Positions 3,513-9,129 of a stretch of 9,129 nt of DNA are shown here, piece by piece. Source of the stretch: a virus. Its lineage: Duplodnaviria; Heunggongvirae; Uroviricota; Caudoviricetes. Made by a program: the position numbers and the translations under genes. The notes beneath the pieces were generated by a model, which saw only the letters and a list, made by a program, of their open reading frames with translations, had not been told where the DNA came from and did no database searches. The stretch is taken from IMG/VR virus record IMGVR_UViG_2617270976_000006; one strand, written 5' to 3'. Position 1 is the stretch's first letter. Each line of letters opens with the position of its first letter.

Positions 3513-3743
3513 ATGCTTAAAACTGACGCTCTTTTGTATTTCGGTTCAAAAACAAAACTTGCACAAGCAGCAGGTATTCGTTTGGCTTCGCTTTATAGCT
3601 GGAAAGGGGATTTAGTTCCCGAAGGTCGCGCGATGCGTCTACAGGAGGCATCTGGCGGGGAGCTTCAGTATGATCCCAAAGTTTATGATGAATATCGTAA
3701 GACGAAGCGGGCGGGGCGGTTGAACAATGAAAATCACTCCTGA
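3513..3743 (+). CDS. dicC: DicC, Cro-like regulator (76 aa)
   Basis: Track ORF translation MLKTDALLYFGSKTKLAQAAGIRLASLYSWKGDLVPEGRAMRLQEASGGELQYDPKVYDEYRKTKRAGRLNNENHS matches remembered DicC. Confidence 0.95.
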   Translation: MLKTDALLYFGSKTKLAQAAGIRLASLYSWKGDLVPEGRAMRLQEASGGELQYDPKVYDEYRKTKRAGRLNNENHS

Positions 3744-4038
3744 ACAGGCTCGTGAGGCTCTGGATGCCTGGATATGTCGACCAGGAATGACACAGGAGCA
3801 GGCGACGATATTAATCACTGAAGCATTCTGGGCTTTGAAAGAGCGCCCGAACATCGATGTTCAGCGTGTCACATATGAAGGTGGCGCGATTGATCAGCGA
3901 GCGCTTGGCGTTAATCGAGTGAAGATATTTGAACGCTGGAAGGCTATCGACACCAGGGATAAGCGTGAAAAGTTCACGGCGCTAGTGCCTGCAATTATGG
4001 AGGCTATCAGAAATGATACAAAGATAATATGTCTTTAA
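3727..4038 (+). CDS. Hypothetical prophage protein downstream of dicC, in the positional slot of ydfX (103 aa)
   Basis: Track ORF overlapping the dicC 3' end by 17 nt; weak ribosome-binding site; no domain recognised. An internal Met at codon 21 (3787) is an alternative start. Confidence 0.55.
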   Translation: MKITPEQAREALDAWICRPGMTQEQATILITEAFWALKERPNIDVQRVTYEGGAIDQRALGVNRVKIFERWKAIDTRDKREKFTALVPAIMEAIRNDTKIICL

Positions 4039-4060
4039 AGAAAAGGCTGATGGCGAAAAG

Positions 4061-4077
4061 TGGCCCGATGAGGGCCA
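4061..4077 (-). terminator. Candidate flxA terminator hairpin, TGGCCC-GATGA-GGGCCA, followed on the minus strand by CTTTTCGCC
   Basis: GC-rich 6-bp stem between the convergent stops of the ydfX-like ORF (4038) and flxA (4093); partial U-tract only on the flxA strand. Confidence 0.3.
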
Positions 4078-4092
4078 CAATACGGCTGTCAC

Positions 4093-4425
4093 TTAGACGT
4101 AAATATCAATGGTGCCAGCGGTATTTGTATCGTCTTTTTTCTCTTCTTTTTTATCAGGCTGAACTGTCGCGTCTTCATTCTTTTTCTCTGCCTGCTGCCT
4201 TAACAACTGCTCCAGTTGAGCCCAGAGGCTTTCAATTTGCTTCTGTACCAATGCAGCCATTTCTTTTTTCTGCTGTGTCGTCATCCCCTCTTCCGATGAG
4301 ATTTTCCCAAGCTTTTCAGTCAGCACCTGAATTTGTCTTGTGATTTTGGCTATTTCTGATGTTCCTTCCGGGGCGGAGTTGTTTGAAATAACGGTTGAGG
4401 TATTTCCCTGAATTGTGACAGACAT
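4093..4425 (-). CDS. flxA: FlxA, FliA-regulated protein (110 aa)
   Basis: Track ORF translation MSVTIQGNTSTVISNNSAPEGTSEIAKITRQIQVLTEKLGK... matches remembered FlxA. AAGGAG Shine-Dalgarno 7 nt upstream. Confidence 0.95.
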   Translation of the reverse strand: MSVTIQGNTSTVISNNSAPEGTSEIAKITRQIQVLTEKLGKISSEEGMTTQQKKEMAALVQKQIESLWAQLEQLLRQQAEKKNEDATVQPDKKEEKKDDTNTAGTIDIYV

Positions 4426-4448
4426 AGATTTCTCCTTTTAAAAAAGCA

Positions 4449-4475
4449 CTATCGGCATGCACAAAAAAATCTTTA
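4449..4475 (-). promoter_or_regulatory. Sigma28 (FliA) promoter of flxA: TAAAGATT, 11-nt spacer, GCCGATAG
   Basis: Minus strand reads TAAAGATTTTTTTGTGCATGCCGATAG, a near-perfect match to the class III flagellar consensus TAAAGTTT-N11-GCCGATAA, about 25 nt upstream of the flxA ribosome-binding site. Confidence 0.75.
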
Positions 4476-4556
4476 ATCGTATTTCTTGTGTCATTAATTG
4501 TTTGATGTTCAGATTGTTTTCCTCGCGGGCTGGCGCGCCTCAGAAAGTAAAGCTTG

Positions 4557-4584
4557 TTGACAGGGGTAAACGTTCGGCAATAAT
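4557..4584 (+). promoter_or_regulatory. Orphan sigma70-like promoter: -35 TTGACA (4557..4562), 16-nt spacer, -10 AATAAT (4579..4584)
   Basis: Consensus -35 and 5/6 -10, reading toward relB about 370 nt away and antisense to ydfV. Followed by the palindrome CCGCATGCGG (4591..4600). Confidence 0.3.
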
Positions 4585-4627
4585 TTTCTGCCGCATGCGG
4601 GTGTTGCATAAAACGTGTTACGTTCCT

Positions 4628-4933
4628 TTATCGACAGGTCAGGTCACCGCTCACCCGCCGACGAGAAAGCAACACTGACATGCTAAAGCAAAAAATAGAT
4701 GAATAAGTTGAGTTGTGCATATGTAGCCTGACCGTCACAAAGTATATGGTGTCTGTACCAGTAAGATGATGGCCGGACTCTTTAAAAACGAGCTGACCTG
4801 CACAATACAGGATGGACTTAGCAATGGCTGCTCCTGGCACAAAGCGGACAGTGATCACCGTTCTTACGACTACTTTCTGACTTCCTTCGTGACTTGCCCT
4901 AAGCATGTTGTAGTGCGATACTTGTAATGACAT
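4628..4933 (-). CDS. ydfV: ydfV-position ORF (101 aa), doubtful as a real protein
   Basis: Track ORF of the length I recall for ydfV. It has no Shine-Dalgarno, and its start codon lies inside the relBE operator and promoter. Confidence 0.3.
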   Translation of the reverse strand: MSLQVSHYNMLRASHEGSQKVVVRTVITVRFVPGAAIAKSILYCAGQLVFKESGHHLTGTDTIYFVTVRLHMHNSTYSSIFCFSMSVLLSRRRVSGDLTCR

Positions 4934-4945
4934 TTGTAATTACAA
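4894..4945 (+). promoter_or_regulatory. relBE promoter (-35 TTGCCC 4894..4899, 17-nt spacer, -10 GATACT 4917..4922) and relO operator (TTGTAAT direct repeats; 12-bp palindrome TTGTAATTACAA at 4934..4945)
   Basis: Hexamers and repeats read directly, immediately upstream of the relB ribosome-binding site AGAGGTG. Matches the known RelB/RelBE autoregulatory operator architecture. Confidence 0.7.
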
Positions 4946-4957
4946 GAGGTGTAAGAC

Positions 4958-5197
4958 ATGGGTAGCATTAACCTGCGTATTGACGATGAACTTAAAGCGC
5001 GTTCTTACGCCGCGCTTGAAAAAATGGGTGTAACTCCTTCTGAAGCGCTTCGTCTCATGCTCGAGTATATCGCTGACAATGAACGCTTGCCGTTCAAACA
5101 GACACTCCTGAGTGATGAAGATGCTGAACTTGTGGAGATAGTGAAAGAACGGCTTCGTAATCCTAAGCCAGTACGTGTGACGCTGGATGAACTCTGA
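4958..5197 (+). CDS. relB: RelB antitoxin (79 aa)
   Basis: Translation MGSINLRIDDELKARSYAALEKMGVTPSEALRLMLEYIADNERLPFKQTLLSDEDAELVEIVKERLRNPKPVRVTLDEL. Its TGA stop overlaps the relE ATG. Confidence 0.97.
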   Translation: MGSINLRIDDELKARSYAALEKMGVTPSEALRLMLEYIADNERLPFKQTLLSDEDAELVEIVKERLRNPKPVRVTLDEL

Positions 5198-5484
5198 TGG
5201 CGTATTTTCTGGATTTTGACGAGCGGGCACTAAAGGAATGGCGAAAGCTGGGCTCGACGGTACGTGAACAGTTGAAAAAGAAGCTGGTTGAAGTACTTGA
5301 GTCACCCCGGATTGAAGCAAACAAGCTCCGTGGTATGCCTGATTGTTACAAGATTAAGCTCCGGTCTTCAGGCTATCGCCTTGTATACCAGGTTATAGAC
5401 GAGAAAGTTGTCGTTTTCGTGATTTCTGTTGGGAAAAGAGAACGCTCGGAAGTATATAGCGAGGCGGTCAAACGCATTCTCTGA
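5197..5484 (+). CDS. relE: RelE toxin, ribosome-dependent mRNA endonuclease (95 aa)
   Basis: Translation MAYFLDFDERALKEWRKLGSTVREQLKKKLVEVLESPRIEANKLRGMPDCYKIKLRSSGYRLVYQVIDEKVVVFVISVGKRERSEVYSEAVKRIL. Confidence 0.97.
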   Translation: MAYFLDFDERALKEWRKLGSTVREQLKKKLVEVLESPRIEANKLRGMPDCYKIKLRSSGYRLVYQVIDEKVVVFVISVGKRERSEVYSEAVKRIL

Positions 5485-5555
5485 ACCAAAGCATGACATC
5501 TCTGTCTCGCACCGAAGGTGACACTTCTGCTTTGCGTTGACAGGAGAAGCAGGCT

Positions 5556-5711
5556 ATGAAGCAGCAAAAGGCGATGTTAATCGCCCTGATCGTCATCTGT
5601 TTAACCGTCATAGTGACGGCACTGGTAACGAGGAAAGACCTCTGCGAGGTACGAATCCGAACCGGCCAGACGGAGGTCGCTGTCTTCACAGCTTACGAAC
5701 CTGAGGAGTAA
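5556..5711 (+). CDS. hokD: HokD (RelF), Hok-family small membrane toxin (51 aa)
   Basis: Manual translation MKQQKAMLIALIVICLTVIVTALVTRKDLCEVRIRTGQTEVAVFTAYEPEE. AGGAG Shine-Dalgarno 9 nt upstream. Too short for the ORF track. Confidence 0.9.
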   Translation: MKQQKAMLIALIVICLTVIVTALVTRKDLCEVRIRTGQTEVAVFTAYEPEE

Positions 5712-5779
5712 GAGACCCGGCGGGGGAGAAATCCCTCGCCACCTCTGATGTGGCAGGCATCCTCAACGCACCCGCACTT

Positions 5780-5810
5780 AACCCGCTTCGGCGGGTTTTT
5801 GTTTTTATTT
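5780..5810 (+). terminator. Intrinsic terminator of the relBE-hokD operon: 7-bp stem AACCCGC/GCGGGTT with UUCG tetraloop, then TTTTGTTTTTATTTT
   Basis: Hairpin and U-tract read directly, about 70 nt after the hokD stop. Confidence 0.8.
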
Positions 5811-5927
5811 TCAACGCGTTTGAAGTTCTGGACGGTGCCGGAATAGAATCAAAAATACTTAAGTAGCGCGCAGGGATAAGAGGGATGGTCCCTTAAAGGG
5901 GAGAGCTAATTATCCGGAAGGATTCTG

Positions 5928-6179
5928 ATGATGAACATCGAAGAACTGCGTAAAATTTTTTGTGAAGATGGCCTCTATGCTGTGTGCGTTGAAAATGGAA
6001 ATCTTGTTAGTCATTACCGCATTATGTGTTTGCGAAAGAATGGGGCTGCGTTAATTAATTTTGTGGATGCTCGGGTCACGGACGGATTTATCTTGCGCGA
6101 AGGTGAGTTTGTCACTTCATTACAGGCATTGAAAGAGATCGGAATAAAAGCTGGCTTTTCTGCTTTTTCAGGAGAATAA
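5928..6179 (+). CDS. rem: Rem, small prophage protein of unknown function (83 aa)
   Basis: Track ORF translation MMNIEELRKIFCEDGLYAVCVENGNLVSHYRIMCLRKNGAALINFVDARVTDGFILREGEFVTSLQALKEIGIKAGFSAFSGE. GGAAGGA ribosome-binding site 5 nt upstream. A possible promoter (TTGAAG, 18 nt, TAGAAT) lies at 5820..5849. Confidence 0.85.
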   Translation: MMNIEELRKIFCEDGLYAVCVENGNLVSHYRIMCLRKNGAALINFVDARVTDGFILREGEFVTSLQALKEIGIKAGFSAFSGE

Positions 6180-8477: not shown

Positions 8478-8615
8478 AAATGGGGCAATGGTAATGTTGA
8501 ATCTCATCCCGGGACTCATGTCTGTTAACTTATTATTTAGCTGGTGACTTGGTTATTTGCCTGATGTTTAAAATGTTTTCTTCCAGTACAATGTCCCTAA
8601 ACACAATGAGTCTGC

Positions 8616-8638
8616 GGTAATGACTCCAACTTATTGAT
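8616..8638. repeat. IS1 terminal inverted repeat (insB-proximal end)
   Basis: GGTAATGACTCCAACTTATTGAT at the junction with prophage DNA. Confidence 0.85.
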
Positions 8639-9008
8639 AGTGTTTTATGTTCAGATAATGCCCGATGACTTTGTCATGCAGCTCCACCGATTTTGAGAAC
8701 GACAGCGACTTCCGTCCCAGCCGTGCCAGGTGCTGCCTCAGATTCAGGTTATGCCGCTCAATTCGCTGCGTATATCGCTTGCTGATTACGTGCAGCTTTC
8801 CCTTCAGGCGGGATTCATACAGCGGCCAGCCATCCGTCATCCATATCACCACGTCAAAGGGTGACAGCAGGCTCATAAGACGCCCCAGCGTCGCCATAGT
8901 GCGTTCACCGAATACGTGCGCAACAACCGTCTTCCGGAGACTGTCATACGCGTAAAACAGCCAGCGCTGGCGCGATTTAGCCCCGACATAGCCCCACTGT
9001 TCGTCCAT
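8631..9008 (-). CDS. insB: IS1 transposase InsB frame (normally expressed as an InsAB' frameshift fusion); ATG-delimited part shown
   Basis: Track ORF translation [125 protein letters not shown]. Confidence 0.9.
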
Positions 9009-9052
9009 TTCCGCGCAGACGATGACGTCACTGCCCGGCTGTATGCGCGAGG

Positions 9053-9127
9053 TTACCGACTGCGGCCTGAGTTTTTTAAGTGACGTAAAATCGTGTTGAG
9101 GCCAACGCCCATAATGCGGGCTGTTGC
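9053..9127 (-). CDS. insA: IS1 InsA, 3' fragment (N-terminus beyond the window end)
   Basis: Manual minus-strand translation [24 protein letters not shown] then stop at 9055..9053, matching the InsA C-terminus. Confidence 0.85.
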
Positions 9128-9129
9128 CC

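Follow-up and report, generated by a model that had tools for sequence, protein, structure and literature searches.

What control is left to a Hok-family toxin gene that has no visible Sok or Mok and lies directly behind a type II relBE pair? We addressed this question for hokD in the window, a 9,129-nucleotide stretch of Caudoviricetes DNA (IMG/VR record IMGVR_UViG_2617270976_000006). Our reading, which we hold with high confidence, is that the locus is relBEF of a Qin-type prophage, that hokD lost its own control through recombination with relBE, and that it would now be mostly silent, with the relBE promoter as its sole control. Gene identities, operator, co-transcription, lack of Sok and Mok, and mosaic origin are established by the analysis below or by the literature.

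Identity of the operon

Over positions 4894-5814, the window and E. coli K-12 MG1655 agree at 920 of 921 bases (99.9% identity), which makes chance no concern, and the K-12 annotation of this interval reads relB, relE, hokD. The sole mismatch is a C here and a T in K-12 at position 5506, in the spacer between relE and hokD, and 4004-5505 shows zero DNA differences. Its sequence identifies the interval as relBEF (relB-relE-hokD) from a Qin-type cryptic lambdoid prophage of E. coli or Shigella. Its main features are as follows.

4922-4945, relO operator: adjoining 12-bp half-sites TTGTAATGACAT (4922-4933) and TTGTAATTACAA (4934-4945), with four [A/T]TGT[A/C]A hexads
4958-5197, plus strand, relB: ORF of 79 aa, antitoxin and ribbon-helix-helix repressor (Pfam RelB PF04221, 1e-32, residues 1-79)
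5197-5484, plus strand, relE: ORF of 95 aa, ribosome-dependent mRNA interferase toxin (Pfam ParE_toxin/RelE PF05016, 2.2e-13)
5542-5546, plus strand, hokD ribosome-binding site AGGAG, 9 nt ahead of the ATG
5556-5711, plus strand, hokD (relF): ORF for a 51-aa Hok/Gef membrane toxin (Pfam HOK_GEF PF01848, 1.2e-23, residues 6-47)
5780-5811, plus strand, intrinsic terminator: 7-bp stem with a UUCG loop (AACCCGC-TTCG-GCGGGTT, 5780-5797), then T runs

The first two genes form a type II relBE pair, with a RelB-family antitoxin first, a RelE/ParE-fold toxin overlapping it and relO with its four hexads; neither gene differs from its K-12 counterpart in DNA sequence. The two genes overlap by a single base (A5197, within TGATG at 5195-5199), as the first-pass annotation had proposed. 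The classic relO that it placed ahead of relBE corresponds to the published operator, since both half-sites are letter-identical to those defined by mutagenesis and footprinting in E. coli K-12 (PMC2812701). HokD has the size, the N-terminal transmembrane helix and the domain of the Hok/Gef family and aligns with HokC, HokB, R1 Hok and plasmid alleles. Its gene starts exactly 71 nt past the relE stop behind its own ribosome-binding site, again as proposed.

Every item of the relBE plus Hok-family arrangement described in the first-pass annotation is present in the sequence, and its remark that the system is known agrees with both the K-12 match and the literature. Gene order, the three proteins, relO, the 1-base and 71-nt spacings and the terminator are all the same as in K-12 Qin relBEF; the surrounding prophage differs from K-12 Qin by deletions and an IS1, which leave the operon itself unaffected. 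In work cited by the papers used here, the operon sequence is dated to 1985, its Hok homology to 1986, the description of the loss of the hokD regulatory part to 1999 and that of the cause, plasmid-derived relBE, to 2016.

A separate observation concerns the ydfX pseudogene, at about 3727-4038 of the window, which in E. coli C carries the NCBI pipeline label 'toxin YdaT family' and which gave no match in our Pfam search of the window. The claim that relBE-hokD is the only toxin-antitoxin locus in the window agrees with the Pfam result but not with the NCBI label.

Absence of Sok and Mok

The window gave no match to the Rfam sok model (RF01794) at a threshold as loose as E<=10, whereas the model scored 87-120 bits on the intact hok control loci L002, L004, L024, L025, L026 and L027. 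In hokC/hokD-type loci, mok is an in-frame extension to 70 codons; the intact mok-hok frame spans 70 aa in the sister prophage L026 (1739-1951), and mokC and hokC share one stop codon (NC_000913.3). Here this frame is closed by a stop codon.

5538-5540, plus strand, in-frame TGA, six codons ahead of the hokD start codon

The other frame overlapping hokD opens only at a TTG (5537) and has no ribosome-binding site. At the minus-strand position corresponding to the sok promoter, we found unrelated sequence and no sok-type promoter, and a stricter promoter scan of the minus strand over 4700-6000 returned nothing. Also absent are a promoter belonging to hok itself and the 5' tac element, the pairing partner of the 3' fold-back element, so that the sok gene with its promoter, the mok frame, on which hok translation depends, and the hok promoter with its 5' tac, all part of a canonical hok/sok/mok locus, are missing here. 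The K-12 reference annotates mokC/sokC and mokB/sokB and no such partner for hokD, and a literature search for 'sokD' found no microbiology paper. The reported lack of a visible Sok/Mok module was therefore confirmed by the covariance model, the reading frames and the promoter scan, together with the alignment to sister loci given below, and the observation that would have spoken against it, an antisense RNA gene overlapping the hokD start, was not found in the sequence.

Mosaic origin of the locus

Comparisons with sister prophages and with plasmid relBE loci divide the operon at the hok ribosome-binding site.

4831-5549, plus strand, relBE cassette of ~720 bp: promoter, relO, relB, relE, short leader and hok ribosome-binding site
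5485-5541, plus strand, spacer (short leader) of 57 nt
5542-5549, plus strand, crossover zone AGGAGAAG: junction of plasmid-type cassette and prophage-type hokD, within the hok ribosome-binding site
5712-5779, plus strand, hok-type 3' untranslated region: stable hairpin (5719-5740) and fold-back (fbi-type) element CCTCAACGCACCC (5761-5773)

To the right of the junction, the window resembles intact hokD-type loci of E. coli lambdoid prophages and IncY phage-plasmids, which have the same ribosome-binding site, coding sequence, 3' fold-back element and terminator. The prophage loci share 88-98% DNA identity over hokD-rem, and the IncY locus about 91% over the hok segment. L026 and L027 read QueH, sok/mok leader, hokD; L026 encodes an identical HokD protein, after which come rem, ydfU and ydfT, which also match. 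In the alignment, homology to the intact sister loci starts only at 5542. Upstream of it, sister prophages with near-identical hokD-rem-ydfU-ydfT carry a leader of about 175 nt with 5' tac, mok start, Sok target and sok gene (Rfam 104-120 bits), whereas the window has relB, relE and a 57-nt unrelated spacer, with the mok frame closed. Downstream, 5712-5779 shows at most two base differences from the sok-bearing loci and 5712-5811 only a few, with the fold-back element, the structured 3' untranslated region and the terminator kept. Rfam matches to isrK (25 bits, gathering score 50) and rsmX (20 bits, gathering score 56) in the 3' untranslated region were rejected as generic hairpin-plus-terminator resemblance.

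To the left of the junction, the relatives are plasmid relBE loci of other enterobacteria, with which the cassette shares about 98-99% DNA identity (BLAST, 98.5-98.6% over 4830/4831-5560) that collapses after the Shine-Dalgarno sequence and ATG. The left end of the cassette is joined to three different left contexts. For relE alone, DNA identity is 100% in nine loci from plasmids or contigs and in two from chromosomes. On plasmids and contigs from several enterobacterial genera, the cassette precedes at least four other Hok alleles, and eight complete loci have an intact 52-aa Hok frame behind it. Examples come from Klebsiella pneumoniae (IncHI1B plasmid p1194_1) and from plasmids or contigs of Enterobacter, Pseudocitrobacter, Pantoea and K. 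michiganensis; they match the window exactly or almost exactly from the upstream DNA through relO, relB, relE and the spacer to the hok ribosome-binding site, and a sok-less hok comes directly next. Their Hok proteins are of the R1/Pnd type (MKLP.../MKMP..., 52 aa), with about 47-51% aligned-DNA identity to hokD, and their 3' untranslated regions and downstream DNA differ from the window. Because at least four other Hok alleles lie behind the same cassette, these alignments mark the hok start as a repeated recombination joint.

On these results, a relBE cassette of the type now seen on plasmids entered a hok/sok locus already resident in the prophage by recombination. In this event hokD lost its promoter, the mok frame, the sok gene and the target of its RNA, and of the old locus only the stretch from the ribosome-binding site through the coding sequence and 3' untranslated region to the terminator was left. 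Published accounts (PMC6379469, PMC12214031 and PMC7232551) agree on a rearrangement or a plasmid-derived relBE as the origin of the loss of hokD control. Co-transcription of relBEF, loss of the hokD regulatory part and truncation of the ancestral 70-codon frame by relBE have all been published already; the recurrence of the same ~720-bp cassette ahead of the other Hok alleles is a small addition to that account. We also considered hok-less relBE loci as the original state and rejected this, as their divergence points differ (5535, 5542 and 5547 in L008-L010). L008 has an IS21-family element after relE, a transposase-like ORF reads back over the junction in L009, and L010 diverges nearby.

The spacer (5485-5541) showed no significant similarity to the sok/mok leaders of hokC, hokB or the IncY plasmid in shuffle-controlled local alignments, and we rejected it as a remnant of such a leader, as the alignments were no better than shuffles. 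In alignments with R1-type and ESNIH1 loci, its last ~13 nt (GCTTTGCG..., about 5529-5541) correspond to the part of the R1-type hok leader that directly precedes the ribosome-binding site. On this alignment, the spacer is more than neutral filler, its 3' part being what remains of an R1-type hok leader carried in by the relBE cassette. Within it, the 8-nt UGCGUUGA (5533-5540) is perfectly complementary to the fold-back element at 5763-5770, with a chance expectation of roughly <1%. This complementarity is probably fortuitous, since plasmid cassettes with differing hok 3' untranslated regions also carry UGCGUUGA ahead of hok; for this reason, and because the full-transcript fold does not use the pairing, a deliberately kept tac-like element was rejected. 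A local hairpin on the hokD ribosome-binding site, strengthened by the T-to-C change at 5506 (~1.9 kcal/mol), was likewise discarded, neither version standing out from shuffled controls (z = -0.8 and -0.2).

Transcription of hokD from the relBE promoter

The promoter scan found no promoter-like site between relB and hokD, and the only terminator-like site in 4700-6000 is the one at 5780-5797, in keeping with the strong UUCG-loop terminator said to close hokD. By Northern analysis, one full-length relBEF mRNA was seen with relB, relE and relF probes, and deletion of the relBEF promoter made the induced relF-containing RNAs vanish (PMC3598666). Co-transcription and the 71-nt relE-hokD spacer are also stated in PMC5120126. 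These published data substantiate the proposal that hokD is under RelB/RelE autoregulation, a control that they demonstrate at the level of transcription only. A single promoter overlapping relO drives relB, relE and hokD. It would be repressed by RelB2-RelE and de-repressed upon RelB degradation or RelE excess, following the conditional-cooperativity autoregulation and Lon-dependent RelB turnover found in K-12 relBE/relO experiments (PMC2812701).

Predicted translation of HokD

Two further features of the hokD mRNA bear on the translation of HokD, its predicted structure and an editing site.

5694-5697, plus strand, TACG at Tyr47: motif in the sequence, reported TadA A-to-I editing site of hokD mRNA

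The predicted fold of the hokD segment is much more stable than those of shuffled sequences (z = -3.7), 0 of 100 shuffles being as stable. A consensus prediction over ten divergent hok alleles, hokD included, folds the ribosome-binding site and AUG against the last part of the coding sequence, here 5541-5565 against 5679-5703. hokD retains every position of this helix, which also forms when the hokD segment is folded; covariation in the helix is weak, with only one pair changing on both sides. We infer that the native transcript yields HokD at a low level only, because the mRNA keeps this family-conserved helix, because mok translation, its normal opener, is gone, and because the Tyr-to-Cys edit affects only a few percent of transcripts. 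Against low translation, the strong AGGAG and its good spacing make some hokD translation plausible, the 874-nt whole-transcript fold leaves the hokD initiation region as open as the relB one (mean unpaired probability 0.34 at both), and the alternative local hairpin on the ribosome-binding site, described above, does not stand out from shuffles. This fold prefers a different local pairing over the conserved helix. On balance, hokD would be a mostly silent passenger, with the RelB/RelE-regulated promoter as its only remaining control.

Alternative explanations

The recurrence of the cassette ahead of intact hok genes raises the question of whether the trio itself is under selection. In one such scenario, which we consider improbable, selection maintains relBE and a sok-less hok together as a three-gene hybrid, with HokD as a genuine second effector and RelB as its transcription-level antitoxin; HokD would be made upon RelB degradation and de-repression of the operon, perhaps from stable 3' mRNA fragments after toxin cleavage. 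The intact 52-aa frames of the other alleles in eight complete loci and several genera would fit, as would the good hokD ribosome-binding site, the toxicity of overexpressed HokD (10.1101/2025.08.07.668861) and the finding that the relF part of the mRNA is the most abundant fragment after RelE, MazF, MqsR or HicA action (PMC3598666). The same paper, however, describes strong relBEF induction as growth inhibition and mRNA cleavage, with lysis unmentioned. The editing to Cys is found on about 6% of hokD mRNA only (PMC12214031; editing is also described in 10.1101/2025.08.07.668861), and hok is broken or lost to insertion sequences in the relBE loci L008-L010, L018 and L022. Moreover, 100% identity left of the hok start, with divergent hok and unrelated DNA to its right, is fitted equally well by repeated hok recombination. 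A related version, somewhat less doubtful but still unlikely, holds that relBE with a sok-less, short-leader hok is a recurrent hybrid module of plasmids in enterobacteria and no E. coli peculiarity, that the Qin locus formed by hok-to-hok recombination and that the trio is selected. If so, the Qin operon would have arisen with such a module and not by simple insertion of relBE into hokD, and retention of intact Hok would reflect selection, with type II transcriptional repression as the sole antidote to a type I toxin.

Least probable of all, and in our view very much so, is that hokD retains an unrecognised RNA antitoxin, either a divergent Sok transcribed from inside hokD or a trans-acting Sok of another locus. 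Two weak minus-strand promoter-like matches lie within hokD, TTAACA-18-TAGCCT (5580-5551) and TAAACA-18-TAACAT (5603-5574), each 8/12, and most hokD-carrying genomes have other hok/sok loci. Both matches, however, also occur in L026, which has its own sok/mok leader, so they accompany the coding sequence and mark no replacement antisense promoter, in line with the negative strict scan of this strand and with a reference genome that annotates no sok for hokD. The Sok target, the mok initiation region, is physically missing, which leaves trans-acting Sok RNAs without a pairing partner.

Implications

As a discovery, relBEF here carries little weight. What the comparisons contribute is the placement of both recombination joints, and they show hok genes serving as joints between plasmid and prophage backbones. 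Like R1 hok/sok (parB), the reference type I system, the locus has a Hok toxin gene whose ribosome-binding site and AUG are predicted to pair with the 3' coding part, and a structured 3' untranslated region with terminator; unlike R1, it has no own promoter, 5' tac, mok or Sok, and the logic of post-segregational killing therefore cannot operate. The label 'type I toxin-antitoxin system toxin' given to hokD should be read with caution, as the locus has no type I antitoxin, and deletion of relBE alters hokD expression too.

Architecture of the relB-relE-hokD operon

The interval 4894-5814 (921 bp) shares 99.9% identity with E. coli K-12 MG1655, in which the matching interval is annotated as relB, relE and hokD within the cryptic prophage Qin. 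The following elements were located in it.

4958-5197, plus strand: relB, from the ORF list and the sequence (Pfam RelB, 1e-32)
5197-5484, plus strand: relE, from the ORF list and the sequence (Pfam ParE/RelE, 2.2e-13)
5542-5546, plus strand: hokD ribosome-binding site AGGAG, read from the sequence
5556-5711, plus strand: hokD, from the ORF list and the sequence (Pfam HOK_GEF, 1.2e-23)
5780-5797, plus strand: terminator with stem AACCCGC/GCGGGTT and TTCG loop followed by T runs, from a terminator search

The relB and relE genes share one base, at 5197 inside TGATG, and the relE stop is separated from hokD by exactly 71 nt based on the ORF coordinates. Upstream of relB, two adjoining 12-bp elements, TTGTAATGACAT (4922-4933) and TTGTAATTACAA (4934-4945), match exactly the relO half-sites that were mapped with scanning mutagenesis and hydroxyl-radical footprinting (PMC2812701). 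The terminator was the only terminator-like site in 4700-6000. The identity and architecture of the operon are assigned with high confidence, and agree with the first-pass annotation, which had described the one-base overlap, a classic relO, hokD 71 nt downstream with its own ribosome-binding site, and a closing UUCG-loop terminator. Its remark that the system is known also holds: relBE is co-transcribed with relF (hokD), one full-length mRNA being seen with all three probes (PMC3598666), and the 71-nt spacer and co-transcription have been tabulated (PMC5120126).

The operon departs from K-12 at a single base, 5506 in the relE-hokD spacer, which is C here and T in K-12. T was found at this position in all plasmid cassettes examined and in the E. 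coli/Shigella loci L017 and L023, both with identical HokD. With C, a predicted G-U pair becomes G-C within a local hairpin covering the hokD ribosome-binding site, a hairpin whose folding was not better than chance. In Rfam, the hokD 3' untranslated region (5720-5801, plus strand) weakly matched isrK, a Salmonella sRNA, at 25.1 bits (E = 0.005) where the gathering score is 50; the match comprises a hairpin and the terminator and is probably a generic resemblance.

Loss of the sok/mok leader

The first-pass annotation had seen no Sok/Mok module at hokD and had proposed a covariance-model search. Rfam gave no match in the whole window at gathering thresholds, and relaxing the cutoff to E<=10 over 4800-5950 still yielded no sok match. 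As positive controls, intact relatives were fetched and scored with the same model, RF01794, which gave 114-115 bits in two IncY plasmids, immediately before a hokD-like gene, 87 bits in an R1-type locus, and 104-120 bits in three E. coli prophage loci. Despite its name, "sok antitoxin", RF01794 aligned in the intact loci (L002, L004 and L024-L027) with the sense strand, covering the hok leader between the 5' tac element and the hok AUG, and not with antisense Sok. It thus probes the whole sok/mok region, and its strand calls indicate detection of a hok leader and should not be taken as a sok gene.

In alignments, homology of the window to intact hok loci begins only at the hok ribosome-binding site (5542), and the position of their ~175-nt leader is taken by the end of relE and the spacer. 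The spacer (5485-5541) was no more similar to the hokC, hokB and IncY leaders than shuffled sequence. Loci of the hokC/hokD type have mok as an in-frame extension of hok, of 70 codons (1739-1951 in the intact prophage locus L026), with a stop codon common to mokC and hokC; in the window, the mok frame is closed by TGA at 5538-5540. An antisense gene over the hokD start, which would have contradicted the first-pass annotation, was not predicted from the sequence either: the sok promoter positions of intact loci hold unrelated sequence, and a relaxed promoter scan found only two 8/12 matches, inside the hokD coding region and equally present in L026. The K-12 reference annotates mokC/sokC and mokB/sokB, and no mok/sok counterpart around hokD. 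All these indicated that no type I control of hokD is left, and because the Sok target region is absent, Sok RNAs from other loci cannot reach hokD.

Passages of PMC12214031 and PMC7232551 that cite Pedersen & Gerdes 1999 describe the chromosomal hok homologs except hokB as inactivated with loss of canonical components, hokA, hokC and hokE by insertion elements and the others by genomic rearrangements. A passage of PMC6379469 citing Ramisetty & Santhosh 2016 attributes the 51 codons of hokD, against an ancestral length of about 70, to integration of plasmid-acquired relBE. Both the operon finding and the reconstructed explanation are thus already in print.

One relBE cassette joined to several hok genes

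QueH, a sok/mok leader and hokD are found together in other lambdoid prophages. Among these, L026 encodes a HokD protein identical to that of K-12, has rem, ydfU and ydfT downstream, and shows 98% DNA identity over hokD-rem; this arrangement is the one that preceded the rearrangement. Of the complete E. coli genomes, 2753 had at least 80% of hokD-rem and only 1163 had at least 80% of relBE-hokD.

A search of one genome per species with the 20-nt junction GCTTTGCGTTGACAGGAGAA returned 13 loci. We compared nine plasmid or contig loci (L003, L011, L013-L016, L018, L020 and L021) from seven genera, Klebsiella, Enterobacter, Pseudocitrobacter, Huaxiibacter, Superficieibacter, Pantoea and Citrobacter, with the window. 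DNA identity was 95-97% in the upstream region, 98-99% in relB, 100% in relE and 96-98% in the spacer, and about 35-51% directly after the hok start, the collapse falling exactly at the hok ribosome-binding site and ATG. The common block, about 4831-5560, contains a relBE cassette of ~720 bp (promoter, relO, relB, relE and a short leader), 96-100% identical across the seven genera, of which the left end (~4831) is joined to three different left contexts, and at least four Hok alleles other than HokD fill the hokD position. Plasmids compared with each other were 100% identical left of the hok start, and divergent and then unrelated on the right, which marks the hok start as a joint of repeated recombination and not as an island of fast divergence; hok genes seem to serve as such joints. 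With one cassette fronting several sok-less hok alleles in several genera, there is a small chance that relBE-hok was selected as a hybrid module and did not simply arise from recombination. A 535-bp contig of Streptomyces sp. E11-3 (L019) carries an enterobacterial spacer-hok junction with an Enterobacter-type Hok allele, almost certainly contamination of that assembly.

Comparison with both parents of the recombination joint placed the crossover in AGGAGAAG (5542-5549), base 5550 being already of prophage type. The final ~13 nt of the spacer are similar to the segment of the R1-type hok leader that lies just 5' of the ribosome-binding site. In Escherichia sp. ESNIH1 (L012, 2042-2330, minus strand), the ~50-nt sok-less short leader recurs in front of an R1-like hok that has no relBE upstream, with no Rfam sok match; this hok adjoins a divergent ORF pair (~100 aa and 163 aa) resembling, by eye, a TacA/TacT-like antitoxin and GNAT acetyltransferase toxin. 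Given the leader remnant and this short leader, the cassette donor most likely already had a truncated hok. Where relBE has no hok behind it, divergence sets in at varying positions (5535, 5542 and 5547): L008 has an IS21-family element after relE, in L009 a transposase-like ORF reads back over the junction, and in L010 divergence begins close by. What is mildly new here is limited to the exact joints (about 4831 and 5542-5549) and to one cassette standing ahead of several sok-less hok alleles.

Remainder of the window

Three further features were noted.

3727-4038, plus strand: ydfX
4628-4933, minus strand: ydfV, annotated ORF of 101 aa, no Pfam match
8616-9129, minus strand: IS1 transposase fragment (Pfam DDE_Tnp_IS1, 7e-74)

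The ydfV ORF starts within the relBE cassette and crosses the left joint (~4831) into prophage DNA, so its first ~34 codons differ in origin from the remainder, and it may be chimeric or spurious. The E. coli C counterpart of ydfX is a pseudogene labelled "toxin YdaT family protein" by the NCBI pipeline; the ydfX ORF of the window had no Pfam match. Besides relBE-hokD, ydfX is the only feature of the window that bears a toxin label, a caveat to the earlier claim that relBE-hokD is the only toxin-antitoxin locus.

Compared with K-12 (L001), about 1 kb of the dicB-dicA interval is missing from the window (ydfC, ydfB and ydfA, and presumably dicF), and the two BLAST segments that meet at the junction share 13 bases (2874-2886). 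About 0.5 kb including ydfW is also missing, at about 4004-4006. E. coli C has the dicB-dicA stretch (ydfC, ydfB and ydfA) and ydfW, and its insertion sequences in this region are not in the window. No complete E. coli genome in the collection was collinear with the whole window. Similarity to K-12 Qin stops at 8615, and cspF and cspB occupy the K-12 counterpart of the IS1 region.

Regulation and output of hokD

A single relO-controlled promoter drives relB, relE and hokD. RelB2-RelE represses this promoter, and loss of RelB or an excess of RelE lifts the repression (PMC2812701); deletion of the relBEF promoter abolishes the induced relF RNAs, and the relF part of the mRNA builds up after cleavage by several toxins (PMC3598666). 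The single relBEF mRNA, its promoter dependence and relO control bear out the proposal that hokD is under RelB/RelE transcriptional control.

Compared with shuffled sequence, the hokD segment folds much better (z = -3.7), with the ribosome-binding site and AUG (5541-5565) predicted to pair with 5679-5703, a helix that is the consensus of 10 divergent hok alleles, among which covariation is thin. In intact hok loci, as known from R1, this helix makes hok translation mok-dependent. The surrounding regulatory scheme has been described (PMC9841398). With mok gone, HokD would be made poorly. In the fold of the whole 874-nt transcript, the hokD start region is as accessible as that of relB (0.34), which counts against poor translation, as do the thin covariation of the helix and the chance-level folding of the alternative local hairpin. 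A Tyr-to-Cys edit, at TACG (5694-5697), is carried by only about 6% of hokD mRNA (PMC12214031). We consider with moderate confidence that hokD is a mostly silent, poorly translated passenger of the relBE operon.
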